Shown one piece after another: positions 8,309 through 9,714 of a stretch of 19,424 bases of DNA. The notes under the pieces were generated by a model. That model was not told where the DNA came from. It worked only from the letters and a program-made list of their open reading frames with translations, and did not search any database. The DNA is from Octopus sinensis. Lineage: Eukaryota. The position numbers were made by a program, and so were the translations under genes. Each line of letters begins with the position of its first letter. The first letter of the stretch is position 1. The DNA lies in NCBI RefSeq assembly GCF_006345805.1, contig NW_021824237.1:1-19424 (forward strand). The letters run 5' to 3'.

Positions 8309-8411
8309 TGTCGTTACTGTCCTGTTTTTGTTACCATTTTTACCCCTCCGCAAAAAAAATCTCAAATTTTATTTAATTTGATTTTCGCGGGAAGGAAATT
8401 TTTATTGAAGT

Positions 8412-8472
8412 CATGTATCGCCTTGACCTTCGAAACGTGGAGTAGATGAAACTAAGGGGACTGAAGAAGGAG
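8412..8472 (+). ncRNA. Candidate permuted hammerhead ribozyme, copy 1 (predicted cleavage after A8417)
   Basis: CATGTA|TCGCCTT (8412-8424), CTTC-GAA-ACGTG (8428-8439), AAGGGGA-CTGAAGA-A-GGAG (8454-8472). Stem I has one G-G mismatch; stem II is GGAG/CTTC. Confidence 0.5.
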
Positions 8473-9207
8473 AATTTTCCTTGTTTTGTATGTCCTGTAC
8501 TCTATTTTTCGTTGTTTAAAAGAAATGTCCATTTCCTTGGTTTTGTGTTTATGTTTTCGTTTCTCTTTGTGTTCGACGTTTTTTCGTGTCCTGTACCCAT
8601 ATATGCATGTATATATACATGTAGAGGTAGGTACGTACATATATGTATGTATATATGCATATGTTTTATTATTAATTATAATGATGGAACGCACGCATCC
8701 ATTTCTAAGTAAGATTGTTCTTATATTAATAATGATGCGCACTCTTAACCTTTCTCTCCCCTCCCTTTCTCAGCCTTCATTCTTTCGGCTTTCCTTTTCT
8801 TCTACCTTACAGTCTCTCCCTCTCTCTTTCGCATTCTTATTCTTTACTCTACAACCATTCACTCTTTTCTCTCCCTTTCTCTTACTCCTCCTCCTCCCTC
8901 CCGTCGCGGTCACGTGATGAGATGACTACCACTGTCCTTCTTCTCCTGGCTTCCTTCAAGTAGAGACGGTAAAATCTGTTGCTCCTGCCGTTCTCAAAAA
9001 ATAGCGTTCGTGAAATTTTTTTTATCTCATTTCGCTTAACAGCCCTTCTTGTTTGTGTTACTGTTATTCTCCGTGTCCTGTCTTTTACTGTTTATATTTT
9101 GTACTGTCGTTACTGTCCTGTTTTTGTTACCATTTTTACCCCTCCGCAAAAAAAATCTCAAATTTTATTTAATTTGATTTTCGCGGGAAGGAAATTTTTA
9201 TTGAAGT

Positions 9208-9268
9208 CATGTATCGCCTTGACCTTCGAAACGTGGAGTAGATGAAACAAAGGCGACTGAAGAAGGGG
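9208..9268 (+). ncRNA. Candidate permuted hammerhead ribozyme, copy 2 (predicted cleavage after A9213)
   Basis: Stem III ACGTG 9231-9235 / CATGT 9208-9212; stem I TCGCCTT 9214-9220 / AAGGCGA 9250-9256 (7 perfect bp); core CTGAAGA 9257-9263, GAA 9228-9230, GTA triplet 9211-9213; stem II GGGG 9265-9268 / CTTC 9224-9227. Confidence 0.6.
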
Positions 9269-9714
9269 AATTTTCCTTGTTTTGTATGTCCTGTACTCTA
9301 TTTTTTCGTTGTTAAGAAAAATGTCCATTTCCTGGTTTTGTGTTTATGTTTTCGTTTCTCATTGTGTTCGACGTTTTTTTTGGCGTCCTGTACCCATATA
9401 TGCATGTATATATACATGTAGAGGTAGGTACGTACATATATTATGTATATATGCATATGTTTTATTTATTAATTTATTAATTTATTATATATTATATATA
9501 TATGTGTGTGTGTGTGTGTGGTGTATATATGTTTGTGTGTCTGTGTGTGTGCGTGTGTGTGTGTCTGTGTGTGTGCGTGTGGTGTGTATGTGTTTGTCCC
9601 CACACCATGGTACTCTTTTTCTCACAGACAGTGCCCAACTGACCCTACTATGCTGTGTAGTCAACACAATCAAAAACAAACAATACGCAAACTTCATACC
9701 ACACAGCCACGCAT

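Follow-up and report, generated by a model that had tools for sequence, protein, structure and literature searches.

The 19,424-nt stretch of Octopus sinensis DNA analysed here (the window) is animal-type DNA, rich in simple repeats and with SINE-like repeats of octopus appearance, and carries a non-coding insertion with two direct repeats, embedded in the microsatellite of a SINE-like repeat. The locus is organized as follows.

8159..8308, plus strand: SINE-like head, the target element (aligned with two further copies, at 1-140 and about 11750-11900, at 74% mean column identity)
8309..8677, plus strand: upstream repeat (pseudo-LTR), a 5'-truncated copy of the unit 3' end, aligned with 9105-9474
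8418..9213, plus strand: 796-nt unit between the predicted cuts, a hypothetical monomer or circle whose release is conjectural
8678..9104, plus strand: unique middle part, pyrimidine-rich and non-coding, with a CACGTG palindrome at 8911
9105..9474, plus strand: downstream repeat, the unit 3' end, delimited by the repeat alignment
9475..9610, plus strand: AT-rich end followed by a (TA)n/(TG)n microsatellite and some 20 nt similar to the SINE tail

The repeats at 8309-8677 and 9105-9474 share 358 identities in 373 columns, with 8 substitutions and 7 gap columns, at an offset of 796, and are the sole non-simple self-match of the element within the window. The insertion is a partial tandem of 1.46 units, each unit being 796 nt long with 37.6% GC. 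When three SINE heads are aligned, the start of the element coincides with the start of the microsatellite of the SINE-like repeat, and the first 3 nt of the upstream repeat (TGT) are equally readable as target TG repeat. On the 3' side, (TA)n/(TG)n is followed by about 20 nt in which the SINE tail resumes, a similarity that is short and is afterwards lost. The roughly 25 AT-rich nucleotides after 9474 are indistinguishable from the target, the criterion for Penelope-like elements (PLEs) being a tail of 30-40 bp at one end. Inspection of the flanks gave no clear target-site duplication, including one of 4-6 bp. The longest ATG frame in the unit, of 130 aa, is of low complexity, and none of the 124 frames of at least 45 aa in the whole window reached the Pfam cut-off, the one weak match (E 0.009) lying outside the element. 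ORF translations and Pfam gave no reverse transcriptase (RT) remnant in the 427-nt unique part, and an EN-RT ORF with N-terminal GIY-YIG, CxC and DKA motifs is absent from the window. A homologue search with the two spurious frames of the element was empty, which is weak evidence on other copies. An earlier note on this DNA had described direct repeats of about 370 bp set 796 bp apart, the lack of an ORF and a Penelope-like pseudo-LTR anatomy; all three descriptions hold, the last as a truncated copy plus a full unit in a microsatellite target.

Several smaller features accompany this anatomy. The heptamer GTCCTGT occurs seven times in the window, each time within the element (8319, 8492, 8588, 9075, 9115, 9288 and 9385) and four times per unit, and may be a protein-binding repeat. 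The CACGTG palindrome lies in a small GC-rich hairpin (8902-8919, z -1.82) that follows a long run of pyrimidines and could serve as an internal promoter element. Where the unique part begins, a short motif occurs twice at a spacing of 51 nt (8679 and 8730); this duplication may be a sign of alternative 5' ends or of a tail of PLE type. Elsewhere in the window, a second direct repeat of 209 bp (4319-4526 and 4627-4835, 97%) is also partial-tandem-like, and its minus strand contains a CUGAGGA core around which the scans closed no hammerhead. At the window start, the SINE copy has another AT-rich insert (243-690) in its (TA)n microsatellite; this insert contains a GAAA block near 626 but lacks CUGAnGA, and it may be a PLE end in decay. 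Two more dispersed short-repeat families, each present in several window copies, were seen at 10811-11192 and 12342-12721, and at 2647-3035, 11625-11699, 13722-13797, 16110-16271 and 17653-17885.

Three hairpins stand out in the folding of the unit.

8347..8391, plus strand: AU-rich hairpin upstream of ribozyme copy 1 (-11.4 kcal/mol, z -2.55, 4 of 200 shuffles as good)
8599..8664, plus strand: long TA-rich hairpin near the repeat 3' end (-30.9 kcal/mol, z -4.15, 1 of 200 shuffles as good)
8662..8691, plus strand: 13-bp hairpin, the loop of which holds the joint between repeat end and unique part at 8677/8678 (z -2.92, 0 of 200 shuffles as good)

The AU-rich hairpin, which had been noted before each cut site, does recur identically 796 nt downstream; its statistic is modest and the hairpin was chosen after inspection of the sequence. 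The TA-rich hairpin has a twin at about 9396-9460, and its signal is partly compositional. The arms of the third hairpin come from both sides of the 8677/8678 junction, and the 3' end of the insertion falls in its AUUA loop. When the 796-nt unit was folded as a circle, it was more stable than 120 of 120 shuffles (z -3.96) with 47% of bases paired. This score was rejected as a sign of a viroid-like circle because the signal is confined to the 8549-8728 region with its TA-rich hairpins.

Eckert et al. (2023; PMC10085705) divide the hammerhead ribozyme into the blocks S (cut site), G (GAAA) and C (CUGAnGA), and validated the order SGC. All six block orders were scanned on both strands of the whole window with a span of up to 120 nt, and exactly one match was obtained, of type SGC, with H17 at 9213 and stems I, II and III of 7, 4 and 6 bp. 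Both repeat copies hold the core in the order site-GAAA-CUGAnGA, the non-circular type SGC permutation, with the following elements.

9196..9268, plus strand: type-SGC hammerhead, copy 2, predicted to cut after A9213 (GUA); found by the scan and by a relaxed descriptor
9207-9212:9231-9236, plus strand: stem III of copy 2, extended past a 4x4 loop by a 7-bp helix (9196-9202:9241-9247)
9214-9220:9250-9256, plus strand: stem I of copy 2, with a 3-nt linker to stem II
9224-9227:9265-9268, plus strand: stem II of copy 2, 4 bp with two G-U pairs
9228 and 9257, plus strand: core blocks of copy 2, GAAA and CUGAAGA, the latter with one extra A
8400..8472, plus strand: type-SGC hammerhead, copy 1, predicted to cut after A8417, with the same blocks as copy 2

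The conserved core (CUGAnGA, G10.1-C11.1, GAAA, A15.1-U16.1 and H17) is present in both copies, and nested folding independently recovers the stem III register of copy 2 together with its extension. Copy 1 matched neither the six-order scan nor the relaxed descriptor; in the scan the obstacle is G8420, which lies opposite G8458 in stem I; the duplex of this stem is calculated at -6.8 kcal/mol compared with -10.5 kcal/mol in copy 2. The two remaining changes in copy 1 create an additional G-U pair in stem I and convert a G-U pair of stem II into A-U. Stem II is weak in both copies, and in copy 2 the active form is worth 0.0 to -0.8 kcal/mol, compared with -4.6 kcal/mol for an inactive register that sequesters G8 and A9. 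The best candidate for a helix joining the flanks of stems I and II has 4 bp (-1.1 kcal/mol), and a different 7-bp closing helix (-6.9 kcal/mol) joins the 5' and 3' flanks of the ribozyme. The stem I mismatch of copy 1, the weak active stem II and the short stem I-II helix all speak against strong activity. Of the two cut sites that had been proposed, 9213 is the sole match of the scan, and 8417 has the same core but a mismatch in stem I; the cryptic permuted ribozyme suggested in the earlier note can now be named, as a hammerhead of type SGC with reordered blocks.

Chance is a very poor account of the motif. The relaxed SGC descriptor, which was relaxed only after the sequence had been seen, matched none of 10,884 dinucleotide shuffles of the window on both strands, no SGC motif was found in 643 Mb of random 35%-GC sequence, and none of 24 prokaryotic loci with the same two core-block motifs closes stems I and III. 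The literal RNAmotif core of the published SGC descriptor, CUGAUGA[U]G, is unmatched since the core here reads CUGAAGA-A-G, and this demand would explain the silence of the RefSeq-wide search on this motif. CUGAUGA[U]G is a search setting that is narrower than the CUGAnGA consensus of Eckert and coworkers, and CUGAAGA occurs 18 times in their supplement (PMC10085705). The canonical types I, II and III (CGS, GSC and SCG) gave no nested three-way junction within 120 nt; a GSC fold is feasible only across both copies, via an 800-nt loop. A type I reading through GAAAC...GUA at 9228-9240 was discarded because CUGAnGA is absent upstream. The window scans gave no minus-strand hammerhead. Rfam returned 145 matches to E 5 for the whole window and 32 matches to E 10 for the element, none of them a ribozyme and all under the gathering score, being mostly simple-repeat miRNA look-alikes. 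The motif is very probably a selected hammerhead, and the copy 2 form can with good probability be expected to cleave in vitro. The release of a 796-nt RNA by cuts at both sites is a prediction.

The differences between the repeats are unevenly placed. Of the 14 difference events, every one falls on the 3' side of the predicted cut, and the preceding 109 nt are free of them; the skew is of borderline significance (p 0.007 with 14 events counted, 0.06 with 8 clusters or with substitutions alone). Five of the six indels fall in T runs, as expected of sequencing errors, and may be read errors. This pattern hints at a template junction located at the cut and agrees poorly with a single circular template.

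Permuted ribozymes were also sought in the Naiad clade of PLEs, which the earlier note had cited among clades lacking canonical hammerheads. This statement agrees with Craig et al. (2021; PMC8557442), who, in the parts of their study used here, found no canonical hammerheads in Naiads and flagged eight 'half cores'. Their consensus sequences (Naiads in File S5) were searched with 18 core and 20 family-name keywords, stems were paired by eye, and the name of a family was taken, in metadata order, from the entry before the next header. By eye, in an incomplete survey, seven of the 54 Naiad entries have complete type-CSG hammerheads at their 3' ends (Parc, Nbra-1, Nbra-2, Nbra-3, Hcon, Hpol and the spider Smim), showing all three stems, a long stem I-II helix and compensatory letter changes between families. 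A further eight of the 54, likewise by eye, show the SGC order with stems I and III paired and a stem II of 2 bp or none (Amil, Aacu with one mismatch, Anas, Movir-2, Ptep, Obim, Ovul and Esco), in about five independent groups. Chance would give 0.001 CSG and 0.09 stem-II-free SGC motifs in 200 kb of random sequence. Five more matches, in the Limulus/Darwinula/Paralithodes block, have both core halves with stems not closed and stand outside the tally of 15. About 25 of the 54 entries were covered by keyword only, and matches split by line breaks escape the keywords. Nine Naiad 3' ends, read over their last 420-570 nt, have no hammerhead core (Omin, Adux, Sdum, CGi, Olur, Pmar, Mgal, Mmer and Tama), and Chlamys has few core matches outside the families known for canonical hammerheads.

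In the Naiads examined, the 3' UTRs are several hundred nucleotides long and T-rich, with the ribozyme inside. Those of the cephalopods (Naiad_Obim, Naiad_Ovul and Naiad_Esco) have the SGC order, an extended stem III and a weak stem II or none, with stem letters unrelated to those of the window ribozyme, and the GUA site is common, by eye, to the window ribozyme and the Obim, Ovul and Acropora entries; the relation is one of architectural kinship, not homology. The consensus sequences thus support the view that permuted ribozymes are hidden in 'ribozyme-less' PLEs. As an account of the absence of ribozymes from PLEs, which is how the earlier note had put it, the idea is carried by the 15 of 54 entries read by eye and is not universal, given the nine 3' ends without a core. 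Esco and Movir-2 also have C-rich, non-pairing bases on both sides of stem II, which hints at a conserved stem-II-less variant. The 3' UTRs of the bivalve Naiads CGi, Olur and Pmar have in common a motif, about 60 nt long, with the look by eye of a pseudoknot, which makes it a candidate structured RNA or ribozyme of another kind.

For the element itself, no second locus, family covariation or partner RT was found in the non-eukaryotic collections searched; phage and plasmid blastn gave no match, and none of the 24 prokaryotic genome-contig loci from the core-motif scan is similar to the element. Probing of the Craig consensus set with 12 exact keywords, on the plus strand and not by alignment, found no matching element, the only two matches lying within unrelated coding sequence. 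A repeat library of O. vulgaris has been published (PMC13282606).

We favour, as a reasonably probable reading, a non-coding partial tandem of 1.46 units mobilized by a PLE protein, probably Naiad-related, lodged in a (TG/TA)n microsatellite and bearing the SGC ribozyme in its repeat. Mobilization by a PLE RT/GIY-YIG protein is very probable, and the chances that this partner protein is a Naiad are about even. The sequence itself gives the anatomy, the target, the motif and its improbability; in the scheme that follows, we infer transcription, cleavage, family status, partner and the form of the template. A tandem or read-through transcript would fold into a multiply pseudoknotted hammerhead, which would cut after GUA slowly or only with the help of a protein, because stem II is weak and the inactive register is stronger. 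By analogy with the biochemistry of the PAc element described below, a PLE protein supplied in trans would nick AT-rich DNA, and reverse transcription may start inside the RNA, at the unit-junction stem-loop, mostly on uncut or partly cut RNA. The enzyme would then copy one unit plus 369 nt and stop. The cut would trim or process transcripts and may act as a template junction, and a 796-nt circle would be a possible by-product, not a required intermediate; that such a circle accumulates in vivo is doubtful. The position of the insertion 3' end in the AUUA loop was counted for this model alongside the ATT nick and the internal stem-loop start of PAc.

A true retrozyme, the strong form of the reading in the earlier note, is unlikely; here both SGC sites would cut, the 796-nt monomer would be circularized and about 1.5 rounds of the circle would be copied by a PLE RT. 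The insertion extends past both predicted cuts, as circle copying would produce, animal retrozymes are low-GC PLE derivatives of 51-972 bp that yield circles, and the circular unit outperforms all of its shuffles. However, one circular template should give identical repeats that later diverge evenly, and the differences are confined to the region 3' of the cut; stem I of copy 1 is broken at G8420-G8458 and both copies have a weak stem II; the TA-rich hairpins account for the fold signal, with fewer than half of the bases paired; and in published work one of nine predicted Xenopus dimers was cleaved in vitro while PAc uses uncut RNA. Less likely still, the locus would be a stack of two 3' ends, both truncated at the 5' side, from a longer autonomous PLE, and the 796-nt unit would form no family of its own. 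Such a history would suit the heavy 5' truncation and complex tandems of PLE insertions (PMC8557442) and the long, T-rich, ribozyme-bearing 3' UTRs of Naiads, but the unique part is free of RT remnants, and the junction lies inside the two-sided 13-bp hairpin, suggesting a native joint.

The single locus seen, the other local duplications in the window and the several homopolymer indels would all suit a local segmental duplication or an assembly artefact, with a ribozyme-like motif that is due to chance or long dead; this is very unlikely, as the 8 substitutions speak against read duplication, the motif is far beyond chance and both ends lie in a PLE-typical microsatellite. A small LTR element, either a TRIM or a plant-type LTR retrozyme, is hardly credible. 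It would account for two repeats of about 370 bp around a non-coding core, for a repeat that starts with TG and for a unit size resembling that of plant retrozymes (PMC7229834), but the repeat ends in AATT and not CA, no primer-site-like sequence follows the first repeat, the stretch before the second is pyrimidine-rich and not polypurine, no target duplication of 4-6 bp is present and the ribozyme is not type III.

The permuted ribozyme and its occurrence in 'ribozyme-less' Naiads are the strong result of this analysis, and the 796-nt circle is a possibility. A joint proposition can be framed, in which permuted hammerheads are the normal ribozymes of much of the Naiad clade (in nematodes and a spider as CSG; in cnidarians, a spider and cephalopods as SGC with a reduced or absent stem II) and the present element is the first retrozyme-like parasite built on one, with both sites cutting and a 796-nt circle; taken as a whole, we regard it as tentative and rather improbable. 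If true, the 'ribozyme-less PLE' puzzle would be largely an artefact of the descriptors, and the stem-II-deficient hammerhead would be a new catalytic variant. With an SGC ribozyme in an animal-type retroelement and seven complete CSG motifs in named Naiads, both permutations would acquire a place in genomes, and the seven motifs would supply the covariation previously missing for CSG. A systematic blind spot in ribozyme censuses of animal genomes would be implied. In the literature searched, which mostly leaves subscription papers aside so that an earlier report is possible, we found no report of permuted hammerheads linked to PLEs.

Among known systems, the element would operate in the manner of an animal retrozyme or a non-autonomous PLE. 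In Eckert et al., SGC ribozymes came from metatranscriptomes and CSG was represented by two similar metagenomic sequences, neither being reported there from genomes of known organisms (PMC10085705). As in the validated SGC sets (HRIMA-1 and SGC-variant), the window ribozyme has the S-G-C order, the full core, a 3-nt linker and an extra base after CUGAnGA, and its 13-nt spacer is inside the published SGC limit of 0-15. Unlike those metatranscriptomic examples, it is genomic and sits in an animal-type retroelement, its extra base is A and not U, its cut triplet is GUA, its stem II is weak, its stem III has a second helix and its stem I-II helix is poor, whereas the helix joining the stem I and stem II flanks is required in SGC-3 (PMC10085705).

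Naiad and other PLE insertions are partial tandems with a (TA)n bias, heavy 5' truncation and complex tandems (PMC8557442), and the element resembles Naiads in its pseudo-LTR partial tandem, its (TA)n target, the lack of a clear target-site duplication and the lack of a canonical hammerhead. It differs in having no EN-RT ORF, and is therefore not filed as a Naiad, in its length of 796 nt compared with 3.4-4.4 kb and in the distance from the ribozyme to the 3' end, which is about 205 nt compared with about 70 nt in Naiad_Obim. Metazoan non-LTR retrozymes have type I hammerheads, units of mostly 150-450 bp and full tandems; in animals, retrozymes derive from PLEs, measure 51-972 bp, are low in GC and yield circles (both Cervera and de la Pena, 2020, PMC7229834; bioRxiv 10.64898/2026.07.22.740005). 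The Xenopus dimers, of which one in nine of those predicted was cleaved in vitro, are from the bioRxiv source, and Li et al. (2026; bioRxiv 10.64898/2026.07.22.740005) list, in the portion used here, hammerhead types I-III only, with type I in PLEs. The element shares with non-LTR retrozymes its non-coding nature, a GC content below 45% (37.6%), a ribozyme in each repeat and a probable PLE dependence, and its 796 nt fall within the reported retrozyme range. It differs in being a 1.46-mer with one damaged copy and in having an SGC ribozyme and not type I, and on the latter ground it is not filed as a non-LTR retrozyme.

The model taken for the insertion step is PAc, the Poseidon element of Anolis and the one PLE to have been examined in vitro, in which reverse transcription starts in an internal stem-loop and the nick is made at ATT (Frangieh et al., 2024; PMC11167929). 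The PAc hammerhead needs protein, uncleaved RNA is the dominant template and, in the account used here, no RNA-seq reads end at the cut (PMC11167929). An AT-rich nick, an internal stem-loop start and a protein-assisted hammerhead are the features for which PAc serves as the model. PAc, unlike the present element, is autonomous and has an AC-rich initiation loop, whereas that of the element would be AU-rich; the PAc hammerhead keeps the canonical order and overlaps the start of the ORF (PMC11167929).
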